Shown piece by piece: positions 39,621 through 57,359 of a DNA stretch of 64,000 nucleotides. The notes under the pieces were generated by a model, which saw only the letters and a list, made by a program, of their open reading frames with translations, ran no database searches and was not told the origin of the DNA. The position numbers and the translations under genes are program-made. The first letter of the stretch is position 1, and each line of letters starts with the position of its first letter. Source of the stretch: an uncultured Actinomycetes bacterium (lineage in GTDB: Bacteria; Actinomycetota; Thermoleophilia; UBA2241); assembly GCA_963755025.1 (NCBI GenBank), contig CAVWIH010000033.1, positions 1-64,000 of the forward strand, read 5' to 3'.

Positions 39621-42287
39621 ATGCCCGAAGACACAGCCACCCCGGTAGCGAACGAACAGCGGCACCCGCGTCTGCTGCAGGTGATGCGCTGGTTCCAGCG
39701 TCACCACCTGCCCATCCTCATCCTTGCGGCCGCCCTCATGGCCGCCGTGCTCGCCTTCGACCTGCTCACGCCGTCCGACTGGGTCGCCGGCGGTTTCTAC
39801 CTCATCCCGCTGGCGCTGATCGCCCTGACCCTGCGGCGCTACGCGATCGTCGTGGCGGGCGCGATCGCCGTCTGCCTGAGCTTCGGCGTGATGGTCGCGC
39901 AGCACGCGCTTCGCCAGTCCGCTGCACCTGATCTATCTCTATCTCCTGATCGTCTCCTGCGGCCGGCCTTGTCGTGGTCTCACGACCTGCTGGCGCAGCT
40001 CGACGAGGTCTCGAGCCGGGCGCTTGCCCGGGCGCGGCTCGCTCAGGCCGAGGCCGACATCGTGGGGCGCTCGAGCCGCCGCGGAGAGCCGCGCGAGCTG
40101 GTCGAGAACGCCGTGCGGCGCATCGGCGACGAGCTCGAGGCCGTCGTGGGCGTCGCCTTCGTGGTGCGCGACGGGCAGTGGTGCGGCGCAGCGGCGTTCG
40201 GCTCGGCCGCCGACCCGCAGGCGCTGTGCTATCCGTACGACGCGCTCGTCCTGTTGCGCCACGCGCTCGAGCATAACGAGGTGCTCCCGGTGCCCGACGT
40301 GGGCGCCTGGTTCGCCGAGCGCGGCCTGACGCCGCCGGCGTACCTGCGCGACTTCGAGCTGCAGTGCGTGCTCGTGGTGCCGCTGCGGGCCTTCGAGCTC
40401 GGCGTGGGGGCCATGGTCTTCAGCCGGCCGGCGGGCGCCCCGACGTTCTCCGCCGAGCAGGTGCGCTTTGCCGGCAGCGTCGGCGGCCACATCGCCGTCG
40501 CCGTCGAGAACGCCCGGCTCATGTCCGAGCTCGACGCCCGGCAGCGAGACCTGTCGCTGGTCGTCGAGTCGAGCCTCGACTTTGCCTCGAGTCTAGAGAC
40601 GCATACCGTGATCGAGGCGGTCGTCGAACGCCTGGTCGCGCTGCTCGACGTGAGCGCCTGCGACATCCACGTGCTCGAGCCGGGAGCCGACGCGGTGCGC
40701 ACGGTGGTGAGCTACGACCGCGAGCGCTTCGACTTTGGCGACGTCATCGGCCGGCTCTGGCCGCTGGCCGACTACCCCGCGACCGGGCGCGTCGTCGAGA
40801 CCGGTCGCCCGGTCGCCATCATGAGCGTCGCCGACCCGTCGCTGAACGAGCAGGAACGCCAGCTGCTGCTCAGGAACGGCAAGACCAGCCAGCTCGGGGT
40901 GCCGCTCAAGGTGCGCGACCGCGTGATCGGCGTGGTCGAGCTCTTCGACGACAAGCCCTCGCGGGCCTACTCGCCGGAAGACGTCGAGCTGGTCGAAGCG
41001 ATCTGTCAGTTCGCGGCGCTCGCCCTCGACAACGCCAACCTCTACGAGTCGCAGCGCGATTCCGCGGAGCGCCTCGAGCGCCTCGCGTCGCAGCTCGCCA
41101 CGCTGCAGCAGGTCTCGCTCAAGATCGCCCACCTGCGCGACGAGTCGAGCGTGGTGCGCGAGGTGCTCGAGTCGGGCGCCGAGCTGCTCGACGCCGACGT
41201 CGCGGCGTACGCGGTGCGCGACGGCGAGGTCGTCGTGGTCAAGGCCTTCCACGACCGCCACGGCTTCTCGGCGCCCGACGCCACGGCGGCCGAGAGCGTC
41301 GTGGCGGTGCTGCGCAGCGGGCTGCCCGAGATCGGCGCCACCGAGATCGGCGACGGCGTCGGGCAGCAGGCGCTGGCCGATCACGCCTTCGTCTATGGAC
41401 GGGCGTTGATCGTGCCGGTCCGCCGCCAGCGCGCCGACGCGCTCACCGCGGTCGTCTTTCAGCGCTCGCGCGAGAGCGCGCTGCACGACGGCTTCGACGA
41501 CGACGACGGCCGCCTGGCGACCACGCTCGCCGCGCAGCTCGCGCTCACGCTGCGCAACGTGCGCGCCTTTCAGCGCGAGCACGAGATCGCCGAGACCTTC
41601 CAGCAGGCGCTGCTTGTCGAGCCGCCGCTGCTGGCCGGCGCCGAGATCGGCGTGAAGTACCGGGCGGCGGCGCGCGCGGCGCGCGTGGGCGGTGACTTCT
41701 ATGACATCCTGCAGCTCGCTCCCGGGCGCGTGCTCATCGCCGTGGGCGACGTCTGCGGCCGCGGGCTGCAGGCCGCCGTCGAGACCGCGCTGGTGCGCTA
41801 CACGCTGCGCGCCTACGCGCAGGAGAGCTCGCCCGGCGAGGCGCTCTCGCGCTTGAACTCTGCGCTGCTCGCCCAAGACCCCAATCTGCCGTTCGCCACG
41901 GTGGTGCTGGTCTCGCTCGACGTCGGCCGCCGCTACCTCGAATACGCGGTCGCCGGCCATCAGCGGCCCATCGTGCTGGCCGGCGGGCGGCGCTTCGCCA
42001 TCGCCCAGGAGGGCGGCTTTCCGATCAGCCTGTTCGACGGCGAGACCTACCCCACGCACCGCTGCGTGCTGCCCGAAGACGCGACCATCGTGCTCTACAC
42101 CGACGGACTGACCGAGGCGCGCAGCGACGGCCGCATGCTGGGCGAGCAGGGTCTGCGCGAGGCCCTCGAGCAGCACCTCGACGAGCCCGCCCAACGGCTC
42201 GCCGAGTCGCTCATGGACCACGCGGCGCGCTACGCCGGCGGCGGCGCCGACGACGACATGGCCGTCGTCGTCGTCAAGCTGCCCTGA
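39621..42287 (+). CDS. Membrane-anchored multi-GAF PP2C/SpoIIE (RsbU-like) phosphatase
   Basis: N-terminal TMs (probable compensating indels at about 39915-39975), GAF domains, 'VGGDFYD', 'GDVCGRG', 'LYTDGLTEA', 'DDMAVV'. Confidence 0.9.
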   Translation: MPEDTATPVANEQRHPRLLQVMRWFQRHHLPILILAAALMAAVLAFDLLTPSDWVAGGFYLIPLALIALTLRRYAIVVAGAIAVCLSFGVMVAQHALRQSAAPDLSLSPDRLLRPALSWSHDLLAQLDEVSSRALARARLAQAEADIVGRSSRRGEPRELVENAVRRIGDELEAVVGVAFVVRDGQWCGAAAFGSAADPQALCYPYDALVLLRHALEHNEVLPVPDVGAWFAERGLTPPAYLRDFELQCVLVVPLRAFELGVGAMVFSRPAGAPTFSAEQVRFAGSVGGHIAVAVENARLMSELDARQRDLSLVVESSLDFASSLETHTVIEAVVERLVALLDVSACDIHVLEPGADAVRTVVSYDRERFDFGDVIGRLWPLADYPATGRVVETGRPVAIMSVADPSLNEQERQLLLRNGKTSQLGVPLKVRDRVIGVVELFDDKPSRAYSPEDVELVEAICQFAALALDNANLYESQRDSAERLERLASQLATLQQVSLKIAHLRDESSVVREVLESGAELLDADVAAYAVRDGEVVVVKAFHDRHGFSAPDATAAESVVAVLRSGLPEIGATEIGDGVGQQALADHAFVYGRALIVPVRRQRADALTAVVFQRSRESALHDGFDDDDGRLATTLAAQLALTLRNVRAFQREHEIAETFQQALLVEPPLLAGAEIGVKYRAAARAARVGGDFYDILQLAPGRVLIAVGDVCGRGLQAAVETALVRYTLRAYAQESSPGEALSRLNSALLAQDPNLPFATVVLVSLDVGRRYLEYAVAGHQRPIVLAGGRRFAIAQEGGFPISLFDGETYPTHRCVLPEDATIVLYTDGLTEARSDGRMLGEQGLREALEQHLDEPAQRLAESLMDHAARYAGGGADDDMAVVVVKLP

Positions 42288-42320
42288 CGGACTCGACAGG
42301 GGGGGCGGGCGGTGGCGGCG

Positions 42321-42390
42321 CGGCTGCCGGCGACCAGCGGCGACGGTTCGCCGCCGTCGGCTGCCGGCGGCTACGGGCGACGGCTCGCCG
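42321..42390. repeat. Degenerate 37-bp tandem duplication between convergent genes
   Basis: cggctgccggcgaccagcggcgacggttcgccg versus cggctgccggcggctacgggcgacggctcgccg. Confidence 0.6.
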
Positions 42391-42397
42391 AAGGGCC

Positions 42398-43549
42398 TTA
42401 AACGCCGACGCCGTCGTGGGCGGCGCGCGGCGGCGTCTGGCCGGTCTGCATGAAGAGCCCGATGCTCATGCCGTCGATGAATCCCAAAAAGCGGCCGTCC
42501 TGCACGACGGCGAGCTGCTCGGTCGCGGTCGTGGCCAGGCGGTGCAGGGCCGTCGCGGCCGACTCGTCGGGCGAGATCGTCTGCAGGTGGGCGGCGCCCG
42601 TCATCGCGTCCTGCACCTGATCGACGCCCCAGGCGCTCTGCTCGACGCGCTGCAGGTCTGACAGGCAGATCATGCCTTCGAGGGCGCCGTAGTCGTCCTG
42701 CACCGGCAGGCAGCGCGCGCCGAGCGGGGCGAAGTAGTCGTTGGCCGCCTTACGTAGCGTGATGTCGCCGGGGATCCAGGTGGGCGGCAGCGACATGAGC
42801 TCACCCACCCGAACGCCGGTGAGCGTGCTCTCGGCACGACTCTGCCGGCCGGCGACCTGTGAAGCCTGCAGCACGAAGAAGCCGATGAGGGCGAACCAGA
42901 GCGGCCCGATGTAGCCGCTGAAAGCGGCGCCGAACCCGAACACGGAGTACAGGCCGTAGGCGATCATCAGGGCGCCGATCACAAGACCGGCGCGAGCGGC
43001 CCAGCGCGTGGCCTTGAGGACGTCGCGGGTGATGCCCCACAGCGCGGCGTGGAGCACCTTGCTGCCGTCGAGCGGGAACCCCGGCACCATGTTGAAGACC
43101 GCCAGCACGAGGTTGATGAACCCGAGGTAGATGAGCACCGCATGGGCGATGCTCGAACCGACGATGGCGTGGCCGGCGTACCAGCAGACGAGGCCGATGG
43201 CGAGGCTCGACGCGGGCCCGATGCCGGCCAGCAGGGCTTCGCGCCCCGGGCTCGTCGCCTCAGACTCGATCGTCGAGACCCCGCCGAGCATCCACAGCGT
43301 GATGCCCCGCACGGGTATGCCCTGGGCGCGGGCCACGAACGAGTGCGCGAGCTCGTGGACGAGCACAGAGACGAAGAACAACAGGGCCGCGACCACCGAG
43401 ACGACCCAGAGCGTAGCGGTCGACCAGCCCTCGAGCTGGAACCACTGGGTGCCCACTGTCCAGGTCACGAGGGCGAAGATGAGCAGCCAGCTCGGCGTGA
43501 TGGAGATGTCGATGCCGAACAGCCGCGCTACCTTGAAGCCTGACCCCAT
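42398..43549 (-). CDS. Site-2 protease (M50) with CBS domains
   Basis: 'HELAH', 'FNMVPGFPLDG', two C-terminal CBS repeats; GGAGGAG RBS. Confidence 0.92.
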   Translation of the reverse strand: MGSGFKVARLFGIDISITPSWLLIFALVTWTVGTQWFQLEGWSTATLWVVSVVAALLFFVSVLVHELAHSFVARAQGIPVRGITLWMLGGVSTIESEATSPGREALLAGIGPASSLAIGLVCWYAGHAIVGSSIAHAVLIYLGFINLVLAVFNMVPGFPLDGSKVLHAALWGITRDVLKATRWAARAGLVIGALMIAYGLYSVFGFGAAFSGYIGPLWFALIGFFVLQASQVAGRQSRAESTLTGVRVGELMSLPPTWIPGDITLRKAANDYFAPLGARCLPVQDDYGALEGMICLSDLQRVEQSAWGVDQVQDAMTGAAHLQTISPDESAATALHRLATTATEQLAVVQDGRFLGFIDGMSIGLFMQTGQTPPRAAHDGVGV

Positions 43550-43713
43550 GCTCCTCCTCGGTCGGAACCCTCTGACGATCTCGTTTCGCAAGCTTTTGGT
43601 GGTTTGTTCCCCCCGGGTGCGAGGGGCGAACGGCCAGGCCGACGACCGACTCCGCCGGCGCGCGGCCGGGCCGACGATCGACTCCGTCGGCGTCGCTCAG
43701 GCATGCCTGGCGC

Positions 43714-44994
43714 CTAGTCGGCGAGCTCGACGACGGTGTCGAGGCCGTCGGCTACGGCCAGCACGCGGGCCGCGGGGCCGCGCGCGCGGCGCGCGGCGGC
43801 GACGGCTTCGTCGATCGTGCGGAAGGCGAGCAGCCCCATGCCCTCGATGAGGGCGCGGTCGCCGTCGCCCACCAGCGCGACGTGGTAGCTCGTCATGAGT
43901 TTGGCCATCATGTAGGCGCGCTGCCCGCCGGGCCCGAGGGGCTCGACGCGGCCGCGCGCCACCAGGTCGAGCGGCCGTTCGGCGGCCAGCAGCGCGCCGA
44001 AGTTGAGCTCGCTGGGGCCGTCGCCCACGCCGAGGGCGAGGTCGGCGCAGCAGGCGATCAGGCCGCCCGCGGCGATCGCCGGACGGGCGGCCATGCCCAC
44101 GTACGTGGCCGCCCGCGACGCCTGGTAGAGGCTGCGGTCCTTGGGCGCCGGGACGCCGGCGACGACCAGGTCGAAGGGCTGTTCGTGGCGCCGCACCCAG
44201 GCGGCGCCCCGGCCACGCGCCAGGCGTGCCTGGGCGCCGGCCGGGTCGCCGCCTGCTACCGCGGCGACCGCGCCTTGATCGTTCACCACGACGTTCAGCG
44301 CGTAGCGCAGCGTGGTGAACGCCGCGATCTCGCGCAGCGCCTGCTGAAAGGGGTTGCCCTCGAGCCGGCACAGGCTCACGGCGGGCTGGTCGAGGAATGC
44401 CGGGTGGTGGGTCCAGGCGATGGTCTGCTGCCCGGCGCAGCCGATCGCCACGGCCTTCACGCCGCCCGAGAAGCCGGCGTAGAGATGCGGCTCGACGATG
44501 CCCAGCGCGACCACCAGAGCGGCGCGCGCCACGACGTCGTTCATGAAGATCTCGCCGCCGCCAGAGGTGACGCCGAGCGGCACGCTGGTCTGGCTCAGGC
44601 CCTGGGCGTCGACCACACGCAGGCGGGCGCCCAGGGCGGGCCCGACGAGGGCCGCCTTCTCGGCGGCCGTGGTCGTGCGGTGCAGGCCACAGCCCACCAC
44701 GACGGTGATCTGATCGTCGCTCACGCCGGCCGCCGCGAGGCGCTCGAGCACGGGCGGCAGGAGCGCCGCCACCGGGCAGCCGCGGCTGGCGTCGGGCACG
44801 ACCACGGCGACGCTGCCGGCGCCGCGCGCGAGGGCGGAGAGCGGCGGCGCGTCGGGCGGCGCGTCGAGCGCCTCGGCGACGGCCGCCGGCAGATCGGGGA
44901 GAGCGGGCAGGCCGGAGGGCGCCTCAAAGCTGCAGGCCGCCTCGACCGGCAGGCAGCGCCGCCCCGAGAACACATACGGCGCCGGCGCGGTCAT
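43714..44994 (-). CDS. LarA-family (lactate racemase domain) nickel-pincer-dependent racemase/epimerase
   Basis: 'VVPDASR..P', 'GLHR', 'EPHLYAGFSGGVK', 'WTHH', 'LYQASRA'. Confidence 0.85.
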   Translation of the reverse strand: MTAPAPYVFSGRRCLPVEAACSFEAPSGLPALPDLPAAVAEALDAPPDAPPLSALARGAGSVAVVVPDASRGCPVAALLPPVLERLAAAGVSDDQITVVVGCGLHRTTTAAEKAALVGPALGARLRVVDAQGLSQTSVPLGVTSGGGEIFMNDVVARAALVVALGIVEPHLYAGFSGGVKAVAIGCAGQQTIAWTHHPAFLDQPAVSLCRLEGNPFQQALREIAAFTTLRYALNVVVNDQGAVAAVAGGDPAGAQARLARGRGAAWVRRHEQPFDLVVAGVPAPKDRSLYQASRAATYVGMAARPAIAAGGLIACCADLALGVGDGPSELNFGALLAAERPLDLVARGRVEPLGPGGQRAYMMAKLMTSYHVALVGDGDRALIEGMGLLAFRTIDEAVAAARRARGPAARVLAVADGLDTVVELAD

Positions 44995-45359
44995 GCGGCC
45001 GTCTCGCTGCCGCTCCGCCCGGCCGGCGCTCCACCGTTGCCGCCGCCCGGCGTGCTCGCCGCCGCGCCGTCGCCGTCGGGCTCGCCCGACGACGCGCCGT
45101 CGCGGGCCGAACCGGCGCGGGCCGCGCCGTCGCCGGCGCCGGCCGGCGGCCGGCGCTCGCGCGCCGGCGGGCAGACGAAGAAGAGCACGAGCGTGGCGAG
45201 CGCGCCCAGCGGCGGAAAGACGATGGCCGCGAGAAACCCGTAGACGAGCCAGTCGACCACGCGGCGCCCGGTGCGGCGGGCCGTGCGGTAGCCCACGTAC
45301 AGGCAGACCGGGAGCTGCACGGCGAACAGCGCTTGAACGACGGTCACGGGAAGGTGCAT
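44991..45359 (-). CDS. Small membrane protein
   Basis: Two to three hydrophobic segments; packed between pafBC (3-bp gap) and the larA-like gene (ATGA overlap). Confidence 0.6.
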   Translation of the reverse strand: MHLPVTVVQALFAVQLPVCLYVGYRTARRTGRRVVDWLVYGFLAAIVFPPLGALATLVLFFVCPPARERRPPAGAGDGAARAGSARDGASSGEPDGDGAAASTPGGGNGGAPAGRSGSETAA

Positions 45360-45362
45360 CGG

Positions 45363-47602
45363 CTAAGCGTACCGTTCGAGGAGCCGTGCGACGACACTGC
45401 GCAGGGCGGCTGCGGCCGCCGGCGGGTCGAGCGGCAGCGCCTCGCCACCGAAGCGCAGCATCTCGTGGATGAGCCAGCGTTCGTCCAGGTAGGGCAGCAG
45501 GGCGAGGCACTCGCCGCCGGGCAGCGCCAGCGTGGGCTCGCGTTCGGCGGCCCAGCGCGCGACCGCGGCGGCATACCACACTGCGGCGCGGCGCGGCGCG
45601 TAGCGCTCGGAGCTGCGCACGCCCTCGCGCCGGTAGAGCTCGATCTCGACGTCGGCGCGCGGCGCGAATCGCTCGTCGCGCAGCAGGGCGCGCTTGGTCG
45701 TGGCCAGGCGGAAGGTGCGGGTGCCCTGCGAACGGCGGCACCAGGCGACGTAGTACCACTCGCCCCGCGTGCGCACCAGCAGGTAGGGCTCGACGGTGCG
45801 GCTCGTGGTCGTGCCGCTGCCTTCCGACCAGTACTCGATGTCGAGCAGGCGGTGCTGGCCGATGGCGGCGTTCACCGCATCGAGGATGGGCTCGGCGGTG
45901 GCCAGACGCTCGCCGGCGGCCACCGCCGGCGGCGCCGCGCGCCGCGCGCCGCGCAGCTTCTGCGCAGCGCTGTGCAGCGCCGCGCCGTGCGCGGTGGGGA
46001 GCTGGCCGCCGAGGATCTCGACGGCCAGCAGCAGCGTGTCGACCTGCAGCGGCGACAGGCGCGCCGGCCGCGCGAAGGCCGAGCTCGCCACGTCGCAGGT
46101 GACGACCAGCGACGATCCCTTGATCTCGGCCCACACGAGCGTGCCCTCGCCGCCGAAGTTGACGAGGTTCAGCAGCCTGATGTCGGCCTTGAGCTGGGCG
46201 CGCCTGGTGTCGAGCGCGGCGCAGACCCGCGAGACCGGCACCGGCGTCTCCTCGGCGCCGCCGTTCGCCTGGCAGACGCCATGCAGGTAGGTCATGAGCG
46301 TCGCGAGGCGGGTGAAGCGGTCGGCTTCGACCTGCCAGTCGGGATCGCCCGGGGGCTCGCTGAGCGCGGCCGTCGTGACCGCGGCGCGACGCGCGCGGGC
46401 GGCCGCGGCCGCGCTCGCGCGCCGCGGGCGTGGGGGGCGCGCGTCGGCTGGGCGCGCGCGTGGCGCGTGGGCTCGCAAGGTGGTCGCCGCCGAGCAGCTC
46501 GACCGCCCGCGCCGCCTCGAGCGGAGGAGCGTCGAGACGGTCGGCGAGCTTGCGCAGCTGGGCGCCGAGGCGCTCGCGCAACTCGGGCGGCTCGAGCAGC
46601 TCAGCCGCCTCGCCCATAGAGAGCACCCAGGCCACGAGCTGCTGCGCCGAGTTGTACGGGGTCGCATACAGGATGTCGGCCTTGCCGCCGGCGTCGGCGT
46701 CGGCGTCGGCGTCTGGGTCGGCCTGCCGGCGCGATCGTGCCACAGCGCGAGAAGTGCGCTTCGACCCACCAGGCCATGTCGGCGGCCACGCGCACGGTGG
46801 CGCTGCCCACCGGCTCGCCGAGCTGCCAGGCGGGACGGTCGAGGTAGTCGTCGAGGGTGAAGTCGGCCGGCGGCGAGAAGTCGTGTGGGGCACGGGTGGC
46901 GAAGGTCACCCGCGAGCGCAGGCGCGACAGGCGGAAGGTGCGGATGGCGCGCCGCAGGTGGCACCAGGCGATCAGGTACCACTCGTCGCCGACGAGCAGC
47001 AGGCCGTAGGGGTCGACCGTGCGCAGGAGCTCCTCGTCGCGGCCGATCGAGTAGTAGACAAAGGACACCGTCTTGCCGGCGGCGACCGCCTGCTGCAGCT
47101 TGGGCAGCGCCGTCGCGGCGCGCCGCGCCTCGCGTTCGGGCAGCACGCTGACCGGCGTCGCGGCGGCGGGGGAGAGCAGCTCGGGGCGGCCGTGGGTGAG
47201 GCTCAGCAGCGCCAGGCGCAGCGGCTCGCTGTAGGCGAAGCGGTGTTCGAGCACGAACAGGCAGGCAGCCAGCGCCGAAAGCTCGTCGGGGGTGAACTCG
47301 ATGGCCGGCAGGTAGTAGGCCGACGCCGGCAGCGCGTAGACCTCGGTCTCGCCCTCGACCTCGGTGTCGCCGACGATGCCGATGCCCAGGCCGGCGAGCT
47401 CGGCGCGGTCTTCGTAGAAGCGCCGCTTGAAGGCGTCGTCGCTCATCAGCGCGTAGCCCTCGACGCGCTCGCGGATCTCTACGGCAGTGGCCGGCCGGCC
47501 CGGCCGCGACAACAGGAAGGCCACGAGCGACAGCCGGCGGATGAGCTTGTCGGCGTCTTTCGAGAACCCCTCTTCGCGCGGCGGTCCGGGCGCTTTGGTC
47601 AC
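45363..47602 (-). CDS. pafBC: Fused PafB-PafC WYL-domain transcriptional regulator (frameshifts near 46725 and 46470)
   Basis: Two wHTH-WYL-WCX modules: 'AFKRRFYEDRAEL...RTVDPYGL...WYLIAWCHLRRAIRTFRLSR' and 'RFTRLATL...RTVEPY...WYYVAWC...RTFRL'; no start codon or RBS evident for a separate second gene. Confidence 0.8.
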
Positions 47603-47611
47603 GTGGCCTCC

Positions 47612-48115
47612 TTAGCGTTCGTCGGGGCGCAGCGCGCGCGCCAGGACCTTGCGGTACTCGTCGTCGAACCCGTGGGCGGCAAAGAAGCCGCTCACGCCGT
47701 GGCGCAGCTCGCCGTCGGGACCGACCGCCACCCTGCAGGCCATGCAGCCCTGGTGCGCCGCCCAGGCCGCCGCGGCCTCGACGAGCGCCGCGCCGACGCC
47801 GCGGCGGCGCTCGGCCGGCGGCACGTAGAGCTCGCCGATCTCGGCCACGCGCAGGTGCTCGACGCTCGCCGACCAGCTCACGGTGACGACGCCGGCGGCC
47901 GGGCCGCTCGGGTCGTCGGGCGCGCCGCCCGCATCGTCGCGCAGCGCCAGCAGCACCGCGCCGCGCGGGTCGGCGAGCAGCGCAGCCAGGCCGGCGCGCT
48001 GCCGTTCGGCCGGCGCGGCGAGCCCCTCTTCGGCGAAGTAGCGACGCAGGAGGTCGCTTGCGACCTCCTGCGTCGCGTCGTCGGCCTTGCGTATGGTGAG
48101 TCCGCTGTCAGTCAT
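47612..48115 (-). CDS. GNAT acetyltransferase
   Basis: 'IGELYVPPAERRRGVGAALV'. Confidence 0.85.
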   Translation of the reverse strand: MTDSGLTIRKADDATQEVASDLLRRYFAEEGLAAPAERQRAGLAALLADPRGAVLLALRDDAGGAPDDPSGPAAGVVTVSWSASVEHLRVAEIGELYVPPAERRRGVGAALVEAAAAWAAHQGCMACRVAVGPDGELRHGVSGFFAAHGFDDEYRKVLARALRPDER

Positions 48116-48154
48116 GATCGGTGGTCGCGGCGCTGCGCCGCGGCGCAGCGCGGC

Positions 48155-49612
48155 TCAGACGGTCTGCTTTTCGGCCGCGGCGATGATCGCGTCGAACTCG
48201 CGGCCGAGGTCGTCGGGAAAGCCGATCGGCTCGGCGGCGAGGATCTCGCGCACCTTGGCCTGGGCCTTGTCGATGGTGCTGGGGGAGCCGGCGGACTTCC
48301 AGCCCTCGTAGGTGCCGGTCTCGCCGAGCTTGGCCTGCCAGAGCTCGCGCACGTGGGCGCGGGTGTGGTTGTCGAACAGGTAGTTGCCGTTGAAACCCAT
48401 CTTGACGATGAGGTCGCGGGCGATGGTCTCGTCGCTCACCTCGACGCCCCGCAGGATGCGCTTGATCATGCCGAGGATCTCGTCGTCGACCACCATGTTC
48501 TCGAGGCAGAGGATGCGCGAGCCGTCGAGCAGGCCGGTGCCGAAGGTCACGTCGGCGCCGTTGGCGTAGGCCATGAACATGGCGATCGTGTTCTCGTAGG
48601 CGCTCTGGATGCCCGGCTCTTTGGCCGTGGTGGCGCCGGCGCCGTACCAGGCCGGCACGCCGTAGAAGTCGGCCATGTGGCCCTGGACCGAGCGAATGAG
48701 GATGGCCTCGGGCGAGTTGCTGGCGTAAGCGCCGCTGTTCATGTACATCGCCGTGGGGCCGCCGCCGTGAATGACCGGCGCGCCGGGGTGAGCGAGTTGC
48801 ACGAGGGTGGCGCCGCTCACGAACTCGGCGTTGTTGACCACGGCCGAACCGGCGATGGTGATCGGGCCGGTGGCGCCGAGGATGGGCATGGGGTAGAAGC
48901 TCACCGGTATGCCGGCCTCGGCCAGCGTGAGCGCCAGGTCCATGCCGAAGCGCTCCTGGTGGAGCGGGCTCACGGTGCAGATGATGGCCGTGAAGGTGGG
49001 CCGTGCACGCAGCTCGTCGCGGCCGCCGGCCAGCGCGCTCGCCATCTCGATCAGGCTGCGCGCCTCCCAGTCCTCTTTGATCGACACCACGATGCTGTGC
49101 TTGGCCGAGTTGCGCACGCAGGCGTCGAACTCGTGCAGCACCCGGCTCTGCACGGGGCAGTCCTGGGCGCTGACCACGGCCGAGGTGGCCGAGACGTTGT
49201 CGAGCGCCTGCACGACGCGGGCGCAGTTTTCGAGGTCTTCTTTGCGCGACGAGCGCACCTCGCCGGTGACCGGGTCGCGGTACGACAGGCCGCAGCCGTC
49301 GGAGGAGATGTAGACGTGCTCGCCGTCGAGCGGCAGGTCGTACTCGGTGGTGCGTCCGCCCAGCGTGAAGGCGTGGGGCACGGTGGCGAGCGCCTTCTCG
49401 ACGACCTCGCCCGGGATCTTGGCGACGGTGGTCTCGCGGTCGACCGTGGCGCCGTGCTCTTCGAGCACGTCGAGGGCGTTCTGCGAGTGGAACATGACAC
49501 CGATGTTCTCGATGACGTCGAGGGTCGACTCGTGGATCTGCCTGATCTCGTCTGCGCCGAGCAGCTCGAGCTTGACTCGCTTGCCTACGTAGCAGCCGTC
49601 TGCGTGAGTCAT
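48155..49612 (-). CDS. MttB family methyltransferase, non-pyrrolysine, paralog 3
   Basis: 'IHESTLDVIENIGV', 'LGATGPITIAGSAVVNNAE', 'QSAYEN', 'MVVDDEI'; AAAGGA RBS; no in-frame TAG. Confidence 0.9.
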   Translation of the reverse strand: MTHADGCYVGKRVKLELLGADEIRQIHESTLDVIENIGVMFHSQNALDVLEEHGATVDRETTVAKIPGEVVEKALATVPHAFTLGGRTTEYDLPLDGEHVYISSDGCGLSYRDPVTGEVRSSRKEDLENCARVVQALDNVSATSAVVSAQDCPVQSRVLHEFDACVRNSAKHSIVVSIKEDWEARSLIEMASALAGGRDELRARPTFTAIICTVSPLHQERFGMDLALTLAEAGIPVSFYPMPILGATGPITIAGSAVVNNAEFVSGATLVQLAHPGAPVIHGGGPTAMYMNSGAYASNSPEAILIRSVQGHMADFYGVPAWYGAGATTAKEPGIQSAYENTIAMFMAYANGADVTFGTGLLDGSRILCLENMVVDDEILGMIKRILRGVEVSDETIARDLIVKMGFNGNYLFDNHTRAHVRELWQAKLGETGTYEGWKSAGSPSTIDKAQAKVREILAAEPIGFPDDLGREFDAIIAAAEKQTV

Positions 49613-49802
49613 GTGGGTGTCCTTTCGCGAACAGGGGATGCGACGCGCGCCCGCCGGGGGCGAGCGCGTGGCATCACGACAGCGTAGGTGGACCTACGCG
49701 GCCGGGTGGTCTCGCGCTGAAGACTTGAGGCGGTTTCGTTTCACGCCACCACTCCTGGCTGTCGTGGGTGAGCCTTGGGCAACGTCGAGCGCCAGTCTAG
49801 CA
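49613..49802 (-). promoter_or_regulatory. Extended -10 promoter plus a structured 5' leader of about 175 nt (candidate cis-regulatory RNA) for mttB paralog 3
   Basis: TGcTAGACT at 49802-49794; 9-bp stem 49675-49683/49758-49766 enclosing further hairpins; RBS-proximal hairpin 49637-49675. Confidence 0.45.
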
Positions 49803-51242
49803 CTCGGCTGCGGCGATGATGTCGTCGAACTCGCGGCCCAGGTCGGCGGGGAACGGGGGCGCGTCGGCGGCCAGCAGCTCGTCGACCCTGGCCTGGGCGC
49901 GCGCGCTGGTGCTCGGCGCGCCGGCCGCCTGCCAGCCCTCGTAGGTGCCGGTCTCGCCGAGCTTGGCCTGCCAGAGCTCGCGCACGTGGGCGCGGGTGTG
50001 GTTGTCGAACAGGTAGCCGCCCTTGAAGCCGAGCTTGCCGATCAGCTCGACGGCGAGGTGCTCGCGGTCGACCGTGACGCCGCGCAGCAGGCGGCTCACC
50101 ATGCCGAAGACCTCATCGGCCACGACGAGCTCTTCGAGCGACATCTGGGTGACCGAGTCGAGCAGGCCCGCGCCGAACAGAAAGTCGGCGCCGGCGAACA
50201 GTTCGAGCATCATGCCGAGGGTGTTCTCGTAGGCCGCCTGGGCGCCGGGCTCCTTGTCTTTGGTGCCGCCCCAGCCCAGGCCGGCCGGCAGGCCGTAGAA
50301 GCGCGCCATCTGCGCCTGCACGGCGCGCAGCAGCAGGGCCTCGGGGACGTTGGCGAAGTAGGCGCCGGTGCGCATGTACAGCGCGGTCGGCCCGCCCGCG
50401 TGGATGAGCCGGGCGCCGGGGTGGGCGAGCTGGATGGCGGTGATCGCGCCGAGGATCTCGGCGTTATTGACGACCGCCGTGCCGGCCGGCGTGACGGGCG
50501 CCGTGGCGCCCAGGATGGGCATGGGGTAGAGCATCATGGGAATGCCGGCGTCGGCCAGCGTGAAGGCGAGGTCCATGCCGAAGCGCTCCTGGTGGAGCGG
50601 GCTCACGGTGCACAGGATGACCGAGAAGGTGGGGCGCTCGTAGAGCTCGGCGGCGCCCCCGGCCACGGCCTCGGCCATGCGGATGAGGTCGCGTGCCTCG
50701 GTCTCGTCTTTGACCGAGACCACGATGGCGTGCTTTTCGGAGGCGCGCATGCAGGCGTCGAACTCGTGCAGCACGCGCGTCTCGACGGGGCAGTCCTGGG
50801 CCGACACCAGGGCCGAGGTGGCGGAGATGTTGTCGAGGCCCTGGACGACCTTGGCGGCGGCGCTCACGTCGGTCTTGGTCGAGGCGCGCACCGTGCCGTC
50901 GTGCTCGCGCACGAACGTGGCGCAGCCGTCGGAGGTGATGTAGGCGTGCTGCCTGTCGAGCGGCAGGTCGTAGGCAGGCGTGCGGCCGCCGAGCGTGAAG
51001 CCGTGGGGCAGCGTGGCGAGGGCGCGCTCGACCAACTCGGGCGGCAGCTTGGCCACGGTGGTCTCGTAGTCGACCTGCGCGCCGGCTTCGGCGAGCACGT
51101 CGAGGGCGTGCCGCGAGTAGTAGACGCAGCCCACCTCGCTCAAGATGTCGAGCGAGGTCTCGTGGATGCGGCGTACCTCGTCGGGCGAGACGATCTCGAG
51201 CGGCCGGCGAGTGCCTACGCGGCGGGTCTCGGCGTGGGTCAC
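49797..51242 (-). CDS. MttB family methyltransferase, non-pyrrolysine, paralog 4
   Basis: AGGAGG RBS then GTG at 51242; collinear with paralog 3 ('CTVSPLHQERFGMDLA', 'LFDNHTRAHVRELWQAKLGE'). Confidence 0.9.
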   Translation of the reverse strand: MTHAETRRVGTRRPLEIVSPDEVRRIHETSLDILSEVGCVYYSRHALDVLAEAGAQVDYETTVAKLPPELVERALATLPHGFTLGGRTPAYDLPLDRQHAYITSDGCATFVREHDGTVRASTKTDVSAAAKVVQGLDNISATSALVSAQDCPVETRVLHEFDACMRASEKHAIVVSVKDETEARDLIRMAEAVAGGAAELYERPTFSVILCTVSPLHQERFGMDLAFTLADAGIPMMLYPMPILGATAPVTPAGTAVVNNAEILGAITAIQLAHPGARLIHAGGPTALYMRTGAYFANVPEALLLRAVQAQMARFYGLPAGLGWGGTKDKEPGAQAAYENTLGMMLELFAGADFLFGAGLLDSVTQMSLEELVVADEVFGMVSRLLRGVTVDREHLAVELIGKLGFKGGYLFDNHTRAHVRELWQAKLGETGTYEGWQAAGAPSTSARAQARVDELLAADAPPFPADLGREFDDIIAAAEC

Positions 51243-51250
51243 GGGGCCTC

Positions 51251-52333
51251 CTAAAGGTCGGTGGCGGTCGCCGGCGAGTCGCCGGCGGCGATGAAGCGTT
51301 GCGTGACGTACGGCGACGTGACGGCGCGTACCAGCGCGTCGTAGTCGCAGGCGAACTCGACGATCGTGCCCGGGCGCAGCTCGCGTGGCGTGATGAGCAC
51401 GCCGACGTCGCTCGTCATGCCGGCCAGCCAGGCGCCGTCGATCAGGGGGCGCAGGCCCTGCGGCTCGCAGTCGCGGCGCCCGAGCGCCACGAGGGTGTGC
51501 CAGGCGGGCTCGTCGGGCAGCGCGGTGTCGGGCACGTGGCCGAAGGCGTCGAGCCCGGCGGCCCCGGGCGGCGCCGGGGGCTTGAAGATCGATTCGAGCA
51601 CGGTCGCGCTGAGGATGGGGTCGACGCGGTCGAGTCCGTCGAGCGGCGAGTTCGACACGAAGTCGTAGCCGTACAGCGGTCCGCCGCCGGCGCGGATCTC
51701 GGTGCGGAAGCGCGGCTTGAAGCCGTCGAGGTGCTGCAGGCAGCAGGAGCCGCCCAGCGAAAGCACGGGCGTGTCGATCGCGGCCGCCTCGGCGACGGCG
51801 GCGAGCACCCGTTCGGCGCGGCGGAACATCGCCAGGCTGGGGAGCTGGCCCGACAGGCAGGCGAAGTTGACCGAGATGCCGGAAAGCACGGTGCCGGGCA
51901 GGCCGGCGAGCCGGCGGGCGGCCTCGCCGGCCAGGCCGGGCAGCACGCCTTCGCGGCGGTCGCCGAGGTCGACGGTGAGCAGCAGTTCGATGGGCAGGCC
52001 GGGCGCGCGGACGCCCAGGGCGGCGGCCGTGGACGGGTCGCACAGCAGGACGCGATCGGCGACCTGGGCGGCCGCCGGTACGTCGCGGGGCTCGGGCGCG
52101 CGCAACAGGGTGAGCGGCGCCAGCGCGTGCGCGGCGAGGCGCACGAGGGCGGGCAGGCGGGAGTCGGCGAGGCCGGCTGCGCCGGCCTCGAGCATGGTGC
52201 GCCCGACCGACGGCTCGCCGTCGATGGCTTTGGTCACGCCGACGAGCTCGATGCCGGCGAGCAGCAGTCGTTCGGCGAGGGTGCGCGTGGCACGGTCGAT
52301 GGCGTCGAGATCGAGGGTGAGCTGGGGCTGCAT
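51251..52333 (-). CDS. Alanine-racemase-fold PLP enzyme, ornithine racemase (Orr)-like
   Basis: PLP Lys in 'GVTKA', 'ADSRL', 'VDLGDRREG', second-base Cys in 'VNFACLSG', 'SLGGS', 'GMTSD'. Confidence 0.8.
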   Translation of the reverse strand: MQPQLTLDLDAIDRATRTLAERLLLAGIELVGVTKAIDGEPSVGRTMLEAGAAGLADSRLPALVRLAAHALAPLTLLRAPEPRDVPAAAQVADRVLLCDPSTAAALGVRAPGLPIELLLTVDLGDRREGVLPGLAGEAARRLAGLPGTVLSGISVNFACLSGQLPSLAMFRRAERVLAAVAEAAAIDTPVLSLGGSCCLQHLDGFKPRFRTEIRAGGGPLYGYDFVSNSPLDGLDRVDPILSATVLESIFKPPAPPGAAGLDAFGHVPDTALPDEPAWHTLVALGRRDCEPQGLRPLIDGAWLAGMTSDVGVLITPRELRPGTIVEFACDYDALVRAVTSPYVTQRFIAAGDSPATATDL

Positions 52334-52552
52334 GGCGACCTGTGGTGTCGGCGTTGGCCTGCCCGGACGGCAGGGGGACCCACCTGCTTCTAGTAGTCGT
52401 GAAACGTGTCGCCGAAGGTGGCGGCGCAGCGCTTTCGCGAGATGGATGTCGGGCGTGTACGCAAAAGTCGAACGCTCGGTCGGTGGCCGCGCGGGGACAG
52501 TATAATCGGGCGGCAGGGTTGCGCCAACTGAGGCACGGACGGTGAGGCAGGC

Positions 52553-54010
52553 ATGGGCGATCTCGGCGGCGACATCACGGTGCGCGACGGCCACCTTACC
52601 CTCGACGGAGTCGACCTGGTCGAGCTCGCCCGGCGGGCGCCGACGCCGTTCTTCGTCTACTCGCCGCGGCGCATCCGCTGGAACGTGAGCAGCCTGGTCA
52701 ACGCCTTCACCCGGCGCCACCTCGACACCGAGATCTACTTCGCCAGCAAGGCCTGCTCGAACCTGTGGTTCCTGGGCGAGGTGCGGCGCACCGGCATCAA
52801 CGTCGAGGTCAACTCGGGCGGCGAGCTCTGGAAGGCGCGGCGCGCCGGCTTTGCCCCCCGGCAGATCATCTTCAACGGCGTCGCCAAGACGCGCGACGAG
52901 ATCGGCGCCGCGCTGGTCGCCGGCGTCGCCGGCCTCACGGTCGACTCGCTCTACGAGCTCGAGCGCATCGGCGAGGTGGCCGCCGCGCTCGACTGCGCCG
53001 CGCCGGTCGACTTGCGCATCGACCTGAACGTGCCGACGCTGACCCACCCCGGCCTGGTGACCGCCCACGGCGGCAAGTTCGGCATCGACTTAGACGACGC
53101 GCCCGACGCCTTTGCCTACGCGGCCGCTAGCAAGGCGCTCGACCTGCGCGGCCTGCACGTGCACGTGGGCTCGCAGATCACCGGCGCCGAGCCCTACCGG
53201 GCGGCCCTCGGCAAGGCGCTCGACCTGGTCGACGAGCTCGCCGCGGGCGGCATCCGCCTGGAGCGCCTGAACGCGGGGGGCGGCTTCGCCATCCCGTATC
53301 GCGACCAGTCCGTGTGCGAGTCGTCGGATTACTTCTGCGCGCCGCTCACGATCGACGACTACGCCGAAGCCATCTGCGAGACCCTCGAGCGGCGCGCTCC
53401 CGGGCTCAAGCTGCTGCTCGAGCCAGGCCGCTTCATCGCCGGGAACACGGCCCTGCTCGTGACGACCATCGAGAACGCCAAGGTCAAGGGCCTGCGCGAC
53501 CCCGCGGGCATCCGCGTGGGCGAAGAGCGCTGGCTCACGGTCGACGCCGGCTTCAACACCCTGCTCGAGCACACCAACTACCGCTGGTACTACCGCGCCG
53601 TGGTGGCCAGCCGCGCCGACGAAGACGCGGACACGCCGTTCCGCCTGGCGGGGCCGCTGTGCGACGGCGGCGACGTGTTCGCCGGCGACGACGACACGCC
53701 CTACCGGCGCTTTCCGGCGGCGAGCGCGCCCGGCGACGTGGTCGCGTTCTTCGACGCCGGCGCCTACACGCTCGAGCTCATGACCCCCTACAACGCCCGG
53801 CCCACGGCCGCCGCCTACGCCGCCGAGCGCGGCGAGGCCCGTCCGATCCGCCTGGCCGAGGGCCTCGAGGGACTGGTGTCGGCCGACGTCGCTCCCGGCG
53901 TCGCAGCAGACCGCTCGAGCGCTCCTGCGGCCGCGCCCCGCTCGAGCGCTCCCGCCGCGGCGCCCGCAACGCGTGCAACGCGCGGCGCGAAGGCCGACGA
54001 CTGCGGGTAG
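52553..54010 (+). CDS. lysA: Diaminopimelate decarboxylase-like fold-III PLP decarboxylase
   Basis: 'FASKAC', 'NGVAK', 'KFGI', 'HVHVGSQ', 'GGGF', 'EPGR', 'GPLCDGGD', 'GAY'; TATAAT at 52501; substrate not certain. Confidence 0.75.
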   Translation: MGDLGGDITVRDGHLTLDGVDLVELARRAPTPFFVYSPRRIRWNVSSLVNAFTRRHLDTEIYFASKACSNLWFLGEVRRTGINVEVNSGGELWKARRAGFAPRQIIFNGVAKTRDEIGAALVAGVAGLTVDSLYELERIGEVAAALDCAAPVDLRIDLNVPTLTHPGLVTAHGGKFGIDLDDAPDAFAYAAASKALDLRGLHVHVGSQITGAEPYRAALGKALDLVDELAAGGIRLERLNAGGGFAIPYRDQSVCESSDYFCAPLTIDDYAEAICETLERRAPGLKLLLEPGRFIAGNTALLVTTIENAKVKGLRDPAGIRVGEERWLTVDAGFNTLLEHTNYRWYYRAVVASRADEDADTPFRLAGPLCDGGDVFAGDDDTPYRRFPAASAPGDVVAFFDAGAYTLELMTPYNARPTAAAYAAERGEARPIRLAEGLEGLVSADVAPGVAADRSSAPAAAPRSSAPAAAPATRATRGAKADDCG

Positions 54011-54130
54011 CGCGCGTAACGCGCGGTGCGAAGGCCGACGACTGCGGGTAGCGTGCGTAATGCGCGGTGCGAAGGCCGACGACTGCACGTAGCGCCGGCC
54101 GCCAAGTCCGACGACTGCGGGTAGCGCGCG
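53977..54130. repeat. About 3.6 copies of a 41-bp unit containing the lysA stop codon
   Basis: aacgcgcgg(c/t)gcgaaggccgacgactgcgggtagcg(c/t)gcgt at 53977, 54018, 54059 (degenerate) and a partial copy near 54103. Confidence 0.9.
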
Positions 54131-54153
54131 CGGCGACTGGTCGGAACGGCGGC

Positions 54154-55254
54154 CTACAGCGCGGCGGCGAGCTGCGCGTCGAGGCCGGCCGTGACGGCGA
54201 ACTTGAGCGCGAGGTCGCAGAAGGCGCGCGTGTTGGGCAGCGCGCGACGGTGCAGCTGGGCGGGCTGGGCGAACGCAGCCACCGGCATGATGACCTCGAC
54301 GCCGGCCGCCCGGCAGGCCGACACGACCTCGTCGCGGCGCGCGCGCGACGGCGCCAGGGCGATCGTCCACTGCCAGTTGGGCTCTCCGCCCTCGCCCACG
54401 TCGAGCACCGCCAGGCCGGCGGCGTGCAGCCGCCGGCTCACCGTCGAGGCGAGCTCGCGGCGGCGAGCGACGGCCTCGGTGAGCCCGGCGAGCACGCGCG
54501 CTCCGGCCGATGCCGCAGCTTCGTCGATGCGGTAGCCGTTGACCATGCCGTCGGCACAGTCGTGCGAGAAGCATTCGTCGTCGGTGGCGATGACGGTCGA
54601 GCGCAGCGCGATCAGGTGGCGTTCGAGGTTCTCAGCGGCGGTCGAGATGAGGCCGCCCGCCGACGGCGAGCCGCCGAAGGCGAAGGTCGCGAGCTTGCCG
54701 GTCGAGCCCACCGGGTGGCCCCCGACTGTGGCGCCCAGCGCCGCGCGGCAGTCTTCGATCAGGGCGATGCCGCGGTCGTCGGCGACGCGGCGCAGATCGT
54801 CGGTGGGGGAGGGGTACCCGGCTTCGTGGACGGTGAGCAGTGCCCGCGTACGCGGACCGATGAGGCGGTTGGCGTCGGCGGCTTCGAGGAACGGCCGGTG
54901 AGGCGCCTCGATGTCGGCGAAGATGGGGCGGCCGCCGGCGAGGATGACGAGGTTGGCGATCGCCGACGACGAGACGGCCGGCATGATGACTTCGCCGCCG
55001 TCGCCCACGTCGATCGCGAGCAAGGCGAGGTGCAGGGCGGCCGAACCTCCGGCGACCGGCACGACGCGCCGTTCGAGGAGGGCCTCGGCGGCCTTCTGCA
55101 GGCGTACCGCCGCGGCTCCCTGGGTGAGCCAGCCGGACTTAAGGGCGCCCGCTGTAAGGTCGGCGCTCTCGCGCTCGCTGTCGCCGGTCACGGTCCGCTT
55201 GCGTGGGAACCTGACCACCTTGTCGTCGCTCGATTCCACCTGCTTGCCCCTCAT
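54154..55254 (-). CDS. DegT/DnrJ/EryC1/StrS-family PLP aminotransferase homolog, degenerate active site
   Basis: 'SGWLTQG', 'GSAALHLALLA...GEVIMP', 'IEDCRAALGA', 'NGYRIDE'; the segment expected to hold the PLP lysine reads 'FAFGGSPSAGG'. Confidence 0.75.
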   Translation of the reverse strand: MRGKQVESSDDKVVRFPRKRTVTGDSERESADLTAGALKSGWLTQGAAAVRLQKAAEALLERRVVPVAGGSAALHLALLAIDVGDGGEVIMPAVSSSAIANLVILAGGRPIFADIEAPHRPFLEAADANRLIGPRTRALLTVHEAGYPSPTDDLRRVADDRGIALIEDCRAALGATVGGHPVGSTGKLATFAFGGSPSAGGLISTAAENLERHLIALRSTVIATDDECFSHDCADGMVNGYRIDEAAASAGARVLAGLTEAVARRRELASTVSRRLHAAGLAVLDVGEGGEPNWQWTIALAPSRARRDEVVSACRAAGVEVIMPVAAFAQPAQLHRRALPNTRAFCDLALKFAVTAGLDAQLAAAL

Positions 55255-55419
55255 CTGTCGCTACCGCATGACACCGCAAGAGCTGCGTACCCGTTCTCGC
55301 TGGAAACAAGGCGTGTGGCGGCGGGCGGCGGCGGGGCGGCGGCGGGCGGCGGACGGGGGTCGTAGCGCCGCGACGCGAGGCGGGGGACGGGCGGTCCGCG
55401 GGAGCGTGGAACCGCGACG

Positions 55420-55468
55420 CGCGGCGGGCGGCGGCGGGCCGGGGACCGGCCCGCCGCCGCCCGCCGCG
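55420..55468. terminator. 23-bp perfect GC hairpin downstream of the amidase gene
   Basis: cgcggcgggcggcggcgggccgg-gga-ccggcccgccgccgcccgccgcg. Confidence 0.65.
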
Positions 55469-55528
55469 AGCACCGGTCGGCTGCAGGATGCCGCGCGCAT
55501 GCTCTGGCGTGAGTCGCGACGCGGATGG

Positions 55529-56695: not shown

Positions 56696-56717
56696 GGCGA
56701 CCCCCTTTCGGGTCGGT

Positions 56718-57359
56718 TTACGGGCTTGTGCGGACCGCCTTGACCAGCCAGTCCCCCGCGCTCCGGTCTCGCGCCAGAGTGAAGTACAGCGTCGTCGGGC
56801 CGCCCGGCAGCGGGCAGCCCCGCCGCACCGTGAGGCGCACGGTCGCGGCGAGGGTGACGACGTCGGCGCGAGAGTCTCCCCAGACTCGCGCCGAGATGAA
56901 GTCGATACGACGGATGGTGTGCAGGCTGCGCCACGGCCAGTCGCGCCTGCCGGCGAGCAGCCGGTGGGCGGCCGCCAGGCGGCGCTTGCTGACGAGGCGG
57001 CTGAACTGCGCGACGGTGCAGGCCGCTTCGAGGCCCCTGGTGCCGACGCTCTCGGCAGCCTGCGTGCCGCCGGCCGGTGCGCCCTGCACCGGTGCGCCGC
57101 CGGCCGACGCGCCTTGCACCGGCGTGCCCTGCGCTTGCGCGTCTTGCACCGGCGCGTCGCCGGCCGACGCGCCGGGGAGCGGCGAGCCCGAGGCCGCAGG
57201 CCTCGGGCTCGCCGCTACGGCGGTGGGCCCTGCCGGCGCCGAGGGGCCGAGTGCCGTCCGCCCGCAGGCCGCCCAGACCCCCACGACCGCGAGCACCGCG
57301 GCGCCGGCGACCAGCCAGCGGGCGGCGGCGACGAGCAGGCGATGGGAGCGCAGGTCCAT
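56718..57359 (-). CDS. Hypothetical exported protein / possible lipoprotein
   Basis: Hydrophobic N-terminus ending 'WAAC'; three '(A/T)PVQ' repeats; C-terminal '...YFTLARDRSAGDWLV'. Confidence 0.55.
   Translation of the reverse strand: MDLRSHRLLVAAARWLVAGAAVLAVVGVWAACGRTALGPSAPAGPTAVAASPRPAASGSPLPGASAGDAPVQDAQAQGTPVQGASAGGAPVQGAPAGGTQAAESVGTRGLEAACTVAQFSRLVSKRRLAAAHRLLAGRRDWPWRSLHTIRRIDFISARVWGDSRADVVTLAATVRLTVRRGCPLPGGPTTLYFTLARDRSAGDWLVKAVRTSP

Follow-up and report, generated by a model that had tools for sequence, protein, structure and literature searches.

A predicted orr–mttB4–mttB3 operon divergent from a D-decarboxylase-like gene in the Thermoleophilia

The four genes of the core

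We analysed a stretch of 64,000 nucleotides (hereafter the window) from an uncultured Thermoleophilia bacterium. It is contig C33 of the host metagenome-assembled genome (MAG; G000), which spans 3.37 Mb and is 84% complete with 5% contamination. Seven minus-strand genes of the window, namely orr (a racemase), mttB4 and mttB3 (two MTTB proteins), a GNAT acetyltransferase gene, pafBC (a WYL regulator), a small membrane protein gene and a larA homolog, run divergently from a plus-strand gene for a fold-III pyridoxal 5'-phosphate (PLP) decarboxylase (table 1). The G+C content of the window is about 72% and long spurious open reading frames (ORFs) are common there; genes were called from the ORF list, third-position GC (GC3) and frame plots, and then from Pfam and NCBIfam domain scans. 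An earlier reading, made from the sequence alone and taking the whole block as one candidate pathway for an N-methylated amino acid, had given the same genes, strands and gaps: recomputed from orr to larA, the latter are 8, 184, 39, 9, 3 and −4 bp, with a divergent spacer of 219 bp. Our analysis sets apart a first unit of four genes, the decarboxylase gene and the divergent orr–mttB4–mttB3 operon. Judged by sequence comparison, this core is a real, clade-specific arrangement, in which a known two-enzyme module is combined with two MttB paralogs.

The racemase is predicted to be a member of the Orr family but not an equivalog. The accessible text of PMC13397332 names Lys-36, Arg-129, Asn-161, Phe-162, Cys-164 and Arg-220 as the hallmarks of ornithine racemases, and the window racemase shows the corresponding OrnR pattern (K36/R129/N161/C164/R220), where the correspondence of numbering was drawn from position and local motif. 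In its own numbering, the motif N156-F157-A158-C159 places the catalytic Cys where alanine racemase (AlaR) has Tyr and an Asn where the latter has its stacking His. K35, R126/R127, F157, A158, C159 and R214 are invariant in all 13 aligned orr orthologs and paralogs, and N156 is found in 12 of them; among these residues, K35 corresponds to the PLP-binding Lys of OrnR, and R126/R127 and R214 to its two Arg residues at the PLP site. A search of solved structures with the racemase returned no match at E 1e-5.

A paralog of orr, 53% identical, lies elsewhere in the host (G000:C29:43384-48500; L019:8382-13474) in an operon with a DDAH/arginine-deiminase-like gene, a pair that recurs in locus L035. 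This operon is divergent to an ABC transporter, the binding protein of which is most similar to the lysine/arginine/ornithine type. In two genera (L013/L029 and L012/L033), the orr–mttB4–mttB3 operon itself has a fourth member, a DDAH/arginine-deiminase-like gene placed directly after mttB3. The two copies of this fourth gene (L013:5616-6479 and L012:748-1599) are 71% identical, and their best NCBIfam match is dimethylargininase (approx. 100 bits, far under the cut-off). Because of the context of the C29 paralog and of this fourth gene, the racemase family of the host may be placed in basic-amino-acid, possibly methyl-arginine, metabolism, a placement that does not identify the substrate of the MttB proteins.

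The decarboxylase had been described as LysA-like in the sequence-only reading. Indeed, it passes the NCBIfam lysA model (TIGR01048: 304.1 bits, cut-off 297.9). However, a stronger LysA is encoded elsewhere in the host (G000:C26, 462.6 bits on the same model), and the best solved-structure match of the window gene is the D-ornithine/D-lysine decarboxylase 6n2h (286.6 bits versus at most 200.2 bits for bona fide diaminopimelate (DAP) decarboxylases). The gene is therefore better assigned as a predicted paralog of D-ornithine/D-lysine decarboxylase (DOKDC) than as the housekeeping LysA. Its Tyr-413 aligns with chain residue 430 of 6n2h, and Y430 is named in the title of a reference as affecting stereospecificity. 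No fold-III decarboxylase other than LysA and the window gene was found in the host genome. In genome G024, a candidate for a relocated decarboxylase was rejected: with no more than 23% identity, the second fold-III gene of that genome is not an ortholog. Another fold-III PLP decarboxylase homolog, 26% identical to that of the window, lies approximately 3 kb from two other MttB paralogs (G011:C2:665000-673200; L091).

The pairing of a racemase with a D-specific decarboxylase has a described precedent in Salmonella, where, in the accessible text of PMC13397332, OrnR shares a small operon with DOKDC and transporter genes, and putrescine is the final product. Both the Salmonella Typhimurium genes (STM2358–STM2360) and those of the window combine an Orr-family fold-III PLP racemase with a D-decarboxylase derived from DAP decarboxylases. 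They differ in that the window genes are divergent instead of lying in one operon, that two MttB genes follow the racemase and that amino-acid transporter genes are missing; in addition, the window enzymes, known here by sequence, are distant from the Salmonella pair. Our literature search found no description of an MttB operon with a PLP racemase. The sequence-only reading, which knew of no operon with this make-up, was thus right for the combination with MttB, whereas the racemase/D-decarboxylase pair was known.

MttB3 and MttB4 are predicted tandem duplicates of the non-pyrrolysine (non-Pyl) type, as the sequence-only reading had it: the pyrrolysine column holds Ala in MttB3 and Gly in MttB4, and neither gene has an internal stop or TAG codon. 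They are 64% identical, are mutually the closest paralogs among the 22 of the host, and share at most 35% identity with any other copy. Non-Pyl MttB enzymes number in the thousands and, to our knowledge, about five substrates are known, all betaine-like. The characterised members act on glycine betaine (MtgB), proline betaine (MtpB), carnitine (MtcB), gamma-butyrobetaine (MtyB) and phosphocholine (MthB). The window proteins resemble them in belonging to the MTTB TIM-barrel family, in having an ordinary residue at the pyrrolysine position and in occurring in a genome with corrinoid proteins and a tetrahydrofolate (THF) C1 pathway. Unlike them, they have no adjoining corrinoid gene, and their binding residues differ. 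MttB4 scores 382.5 bits on TIGR02369 (under the cut-off of 525), and the nearest solved structure reaches only approximately 203–222 bits. When MttB4 is aligned to the MtgB structure 2qne, none of the four glycine-betaine-binding residues is retained (Y97 to G106, R312 to G321, H348 to F356 and F356 to V364; a 16-residue offset between chain and published numbering was derived from all four contacts). The R312 column holds Trp in MttB3 and Arg in only one of the 22 host paralogs. According to the accessible text of PMC13080624, all MttB members whose function is known conserve R312, which binds the carboxylate, and their substrates are all acidic quaternary amines. On these grounds, known members do not allow the substrate of MttB3 and MttB4 to be predicted.

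The wider host genome is rich in such genes, with about 30 MttB paralogs and 34 MTTB matches, four of which lie in the window. Five MttB genes (on contigs C14, C16, C21 and C34) carry one in-frame TAG each, all at the same alignment column, and PylB, PylD (split over two frames) and PylS are encoded together at G000:C10:67664-76259; the host thus appears to decode pyrrolysine. The accessible text of PMC10805028 reports that Actinobacteriota express Pyl-type mttB and mtbB. There are 17 B12-binding matches in the host, approximately 10 of them small corrinoid proteins; a Pyl-type dimethylamine methyltransferase adjoins two corrinoid proteins on C16, and formate-THF ligase and FolD are encoded on C10. 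A second tandem non-Pyl pair, mttB1 and mttB2, lies at window positions 230-1630 and 1924-3318 (plus strand); its members are 56% identical to each other and 56–58% identical to a copy on C11.

Conservation and boundary of the core

Conservation was followed in two sets of loci. Around orr homologs in 41 genomes (G000, 24 other genomes of the same family and 16 of other families of the class), we fetched 20 loci, 18 of them orthologs and two belonging to the 52–53% identical paralog. A scan of species-representative genomes then yielded 66 further loci, reduced to 63 after L035 and L038 (52–54% paralog only) and L083 (anchored on a 31% paralog) had been dropped. MttB3/4-type genes were recognized at E ≤ 1e-120.

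The arrangement of the block is more than chance, since it recurs in these 63 related species-level loci. Of the 59 loci whose downstream DNA is long enough, 58 have an mttB gene directly after orr; 53/55 contain the two mttB genes together, and the divergent decarboxylase occurs in 52 of the 55 loci with at least 2.2 kb upstream. Across the 63 loci, median gaps are 19 bp between orr and mttB4 and 29 bp between mttB4 and mttB3. The interval between mttB3 and pafB is wider (median 197 bp, maximum 3787 bp), and insertions of unrelated genes fall here, between mttB3 and GNAT/pafB; none was found within orr–mttB4–mttB3 in any of the 63 loci. The only other large gaps of the block are five between larA and M50 or larA and SpoIIE (approx. 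1.4–1.6 kb) and one between the decarboxylase gene and orr (4.9 kb). Because insertions occur there, we place the predicted boundary of the unit after mttB3. The notion of the orr-like gene and the two mttB genes as a tight, co-directional unit diverging from the decarboxylase is thus borne out.

In approximately 10 loci, the interval after mttB3 is filled by a secreted repeat protein lacking any Pfam match. This protein has 450–516 residues and repeated 'VVVAW.D.RD' motifs, and one copy has a signal-peptide-like start; it was seen at L014:4741-6291, L006:4631-5986 and in about eight more loci.

MttB3/4-type genes were detected in 18 of the 24 other genomes of the family, beside orr in 16 and on short separate contigs in the remaining two, and in none of the 16 genomes of other families of the class. 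An MttB4 ortholog was absent from 400 other Actinomycetota genomes, and the best 120 of 328 matches of a protein search were all 62–95% identical. The species-representative scan matched Thermoleophilia-type MAGs only, plus one labelled Deltaproteobacteria with the same gene order. The MAGs behind the related loci carry the label Thermoleophilia or Actinomycetota, and many of their isolate names are of peat type (bog_, palsa_, fen_), among them bog_752.

Several loci have lost parts of the arrangement:

— L093 has the decarboxylase next to pafBC–larA, with neither orr nor mttB.

— L092 retains only pafBC and the small membrane ORF.

— L015/L034 keep the decarboxylase and orr, with no mttB.

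— L016, L067 and L068 have orr–mttB–mttB and no decarboxylase.

The genes beyond mttB3

The sequence-only reading had drawn the GNAT, PafBC, membrane protein and LarA genes into the same pathway. This extension was not upheld: insertions fall after mttB3, pafBC is kept in loci devoid of orr and mttB, and larA is lost separately. Instead, a second unit, (GNAT)–pafBC, and a third, the small membrane protein with the LarA-family racemase, can be distinguished. The genes pafB, pafC and larA are all present in 46 of the 46 loci with at least 9.5 kb downstream. In the same set, GNAT was detected in only five loci. It lies close to pafB (median gap 35 bp) and up to 2004 bp from mttB3; where the secreted-protein gene separates it from mttB3 (L004/L024, L006/L026), it stays with pafB. 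GNAT is best described as a genus-level addition that travels, on the evidence of these positions, with pafBC.

The pafBC gene is the only one of its kind in the host genome and is retained in L092 and L093. It carries WYL domains in both halves, HTH_PafC and WCX in the C-terminal half and a WCX-like stretch of the N-terminal half in a shifted frame. The sequence-only reading counted a single pafBC gene. This agrees with L003 and L009, where the gene is one continuous fused ORF (L001 shows one frame change), but in the present assembly its frame is broken twice, near 46677-46726, at a short GC-rich repeat, and near 46352-46482. These breaks are probably assembly errors, since PutA (approx. 10163-10253), PylD and several MttB fragments are split likewise. 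The GC-rich repeat itself (window 46689-46722, within pafB) reads as repeats of Asp-Ala or of Thr-Pro according to frame and coincides with the first frame change as well as with irregular joints in RNA contigs of relatives; its length seems to be strain-variable. PutA (proline dehydrogenase plus aldehyde dehydrogenase; window 9324-12247, minus strand) consists of two overlapping ORFs with Aldedh cut at profile position 183, which looks like a frameshift of the pafBC kind.

In its two-part HTH–WYL–WCX build, fused in relatives of the window, this regulator resembles mycobacterial PafBC, the WYL activator of the DNA-damage response. In contrast to the latter, it lies outside any pupylation locus, since no Pup ligase (PafA/Dop) was found in the host genome or in five relatives (94–100% complete). 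A scan with a PafBC-type promoter motif gave one match with one mismatch, inside mttB2; as 33 of 100 shuffles did as well, this candidate was rejected.

The small membrane ORF was detected in 11/46 loci and has no Pfam or NCBIfam match. Its hydrophobic N-terminal part of approximately 70 residues is conserved (tblastn covers the first 65–77 residues in near relatives) and its tail is of low complexity. The LarA homolog is missing from L020 and L092, both of which keep pafBC. It shares Lar_N, LarA_C and aligned motifs with the superfamily of lactate, malate and other nickel-pincer nucleotide (NPN)-dependent 2-hydroxyacid racemases and epimerases, and the host encodes LarC; unlike characterised members, it falls under every NCBIfam equivalog cut-off (best match LarAH6 malate racemase, 245.6 bits versus 500). 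Its best solved matches are 9eia (a broad-spectrum LarA, 146 bits) and 6d6z (malate racemase Mar2, 138 bits), and aligned to the former it keeps the cofactor and catalytic motifs GLHR, EPHL..SGGVK and THHP. LarC (Ni_insertion) spans two frames at G000:C10:45848-47018, adjoining formate-THF ligase, a cyclodeaminase-domain protein and FolD; a programmed frameshift is used by LarC in some bacteria. The only other LarA copy, approximately 5 kb from another MttB/MtbB cluster, was considered as a link between the two families and rejected, because it follows GAPDH and PGK, precedes malic enzyme and is best read as part of central metabolism. In sum, the analysis found no link between the MttB unit and LarA, the membrane ORF, pafBC or GNAT.

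Other features complete the picture of the block. A sigma-70-like match lies upstream of orr and is the sole one in 42000-57000, where shuffles average 0.2; this putative promoter is a likeness to the consensus and no proof of function. At the other side, the 3' end of the decarboxylase gene faces two convergent genes (window 54154-56695, minus strand), for a DegT-type aminotransferase and an Amidase_6-domain protein; most related loci retain the latter gene, and fewer the former.

Table 1. Features of the block (positions in the window).
Feature	Position	Strand	Basis or remark
LarA-family (nickel-pincer nucleotide) homolog	43714-44994	-	Lar_N 8e-44, LarA_C 9.4e-08
Small membrane protein, 122 aa	44991-45359	-	coding-like GC3
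pafBC-type fused WYL regulator	45363-47602	-	three frames: 46601-47602, about 46480-46680, 45363-46379
pafC-like part	45363-46379	-	HTH_PafC, WYL, WCX
pafB-like part	46601-47602	-	WYL
GNAT acetyltransferase	47612-48115	-	Pfam Acetyltransf_1 7.9e-10
MttB3, MTTB protein	48155-49612	-	Pfam MTTB 7.8e-87
MttB4, MTTB protein	49797-51242	-	Pfam MTTB 2.3e-88
Orr/OrnR-family PLP racemase, first gene of operon	51251-52333	-	Pfam Ala_racemase_N 1.5e-16
Sigma-70-like promoter match in divergent spacer, upstream of orr	52499-52527	-	consensus match only
DOKDC/DokD-like fold-III PLP decarboxylase	52553-54010	+	Pfam Orn_Arg_deC_N 1.5e-46

Possible roles of the core

We regard the block as a lineage-conserved stretch of chromosome made of at least three separate units, and give an even chance to the reading in which the first of them, with its racemase, MttB proteins and decarboxylase, works as one module on a shared substrate. 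A putative role for the four genes on a basic amino acid or its N-methylated form is plausible. In such a module, the Orr-family racemase would convert a basic amino acid (ornithine/lysine/arginine type) between its L and D forms, and the DOKDC-like enzyme would decarboxylate the D form to a diamine, as the Salmonella pair of OrnR and DOKDC does. MttB3 and MttB4 would pass methyl groups from an N-methylated amine, most economically this amino acid, or the diamine made from it, in N-methylated form, to a corrinoid protein encoded elsewhere in the genome, from which they would enter methyl-tetrahydrofolate C1 metabolism.

A number of observations weigh against this shared-substrate module. All loci belong to one Thermoleophilia family and are thus not independent, and no second lineage with the arrangement was found in the species-representative scan, the 400 other Actinomycetota genomes or the best 120 of 328 protein matches; the co-location of orr-like, mttB and lysA-like genes in relatives, as envisaged by the sequence-only reading, was seen among the 63 related loci, all of a single family. 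Moreover, approximately 19 kb from SpoIIE to cysK are collinear across this family, unrelated flanks (M50 protease, SpoIIE phosphatase, rrf2–cysK) included. Because these unrelated genes are equally collinear, conserved adjacency alone proves little, and the case for the core unit lies in gap sizes, positions of insertions and co-loss. The parts are also separable, the decarboxylase occurring without orr, orr without mttB and orr–mttB without the decarboxylase, and the loci do not support an obligate three-way dependence. Both partner enzymes are remote from their models (racemase 125.7 bits over the full racem_Orr profile, cut-off 480; decarboxylase 339.2 bits on DokD, cut-off 700). Corrinoid (B12-binding) genes are absent within 10 kb in the fetched flanks of the 66 loci and from the whole window, and a transporter gene is absent from the orr–mttB4–mttB3/decarboxylase unit, unlike in characterised MttB systems and the Salmonella operon. 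Finally, in a wetland metatranscriptome run containing 5% of the sampled words, contigs measured 180–300 nt, were mostly 90–95% identical and in no case spanned a gene junction; RNA thus lent no support to co-transcription of the unit.

The same facts can be read in other ways. The racemase and decarboxylase may simply form a putrescine or cadaverine route as in Salmonella, with MttB proteins that act on an unrelated methylated amine and owe their co-transcription to the history of the region. With 34 MTTB matches in 3.37 Mb, four of them in the window, an MttB neighbour is not a rare event; the decarboxylase persists without orr and mttB in L093, and with orr but without mttB in L015/L034; and as the sole fold-III decarboxylase besides LysA, it could be the source of these diamines in the host. 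MttB4 moreover lacks the carboxylate-binding Arg of all characterised MttBs for acidic quaternary amines, in the accessible text of PMC13080624. We nevertheless hold this route with an unrelated MttB substrate to be rather unlikely, for MttB3/4-type genes were found nowhere but immediately after orr (16 of 18 genomes, the other two having them on short contigs), none of the 63 loci has an insertion that splits orr, mttB4 and mttB3, although insertions are present just past mttB3, and gaps as short as 19 and 29 bp in the median speak for one transcript.

At the other extreme, a single pathway could embrace all seven or eight minus-strand genes together with the decarboxylase; it would be regulated by PafBC, carry out the racemisation, demethylation, acetylation and decarboxylation of an N-methyl amino acid, and yield a 2-hydroxy acid on which LarA acts. 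WYL regulators often control adjacent genes, the gaps in the window are short throughout (39, 9, 3 and −4 bp), and pafB, pafC and larA follow the mttB genes in 46/46 loci. However, GNAT occurs in five of these 46 and stays with pafB past an insertion, the only pafBC of the genome is kept in L092 and L093 where orr and mttB are gone, larA is absent from L020 and L092, and the unrelated M50, SpoIIE and rrf2–cysK flanks are just as syntenic, all of which makes so inclusive a pathway very improbable. D-ornithine can also enter the chemistry of the pyrrolysine pathway, and the Orr-like enzyme might feed it to PylC/PylD to give desmethyl-pyrrolysine for methylamine methyltransferases, in a host that encodes PylS, PylB and PylD and has five MttB genes with TAG at one column. 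This proposal, which we dropped because PylB is present, is barely credible: PylB exceeds its curated cut-off in 5/5 genomes checked, leaving no need for a bypass, MttB3 and MttB4 themselves have no TAG codon, and the adjacent D-specific decarboxylase would destroy D-ornithine.

Returning to the shared-substrate module, methyl-arginine, methyl-lysine and methyl-ornithine are possible substrates of MttB3 and MttB4. A bolder version would make these two proteins the first MttBs to demethylate a side-chain N-methylated basic amino acid or its derived diamine instead of a betaine, in concert with a racemase and a stereo-inverting D-decarboxylase. The missing carboxylate Arg, the DDAH-like gene in the operon of two genera and the Lys/Arg/Orn uptake context of the racemase paralog are compatible with this version, which we consider unlikely.

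What appears to be new here is a tight orr–mttB4–mttB3 operon beside a D-decarboxylase gene. By their family assignments, these genes would extend to the Actinomycetota a racemase/D-decarboxylase route so far known from enterobacteria. A clade-specific MttB pair without the usual carboxylate-binding residue, tied to a racemase and a D-decarboxylase, points to a short, testable set of unusual substrates. The host shares its genus with the MAG bog_752. In the accessible text of PMC10805028, the genus Bog-752 is reported to be, of the bacterial methylotrophs of a thawing permafrost mire, one of the most active; what MttB3 and MttB4 act on thus matters for the question of which methylated nitrogen compounds supply carbon turnover in peat. 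If the side-chain reading is true, peat Thermoleophilia would possess a corrinoid route harvesting methyl groups from protein-derived methylated amino acids.

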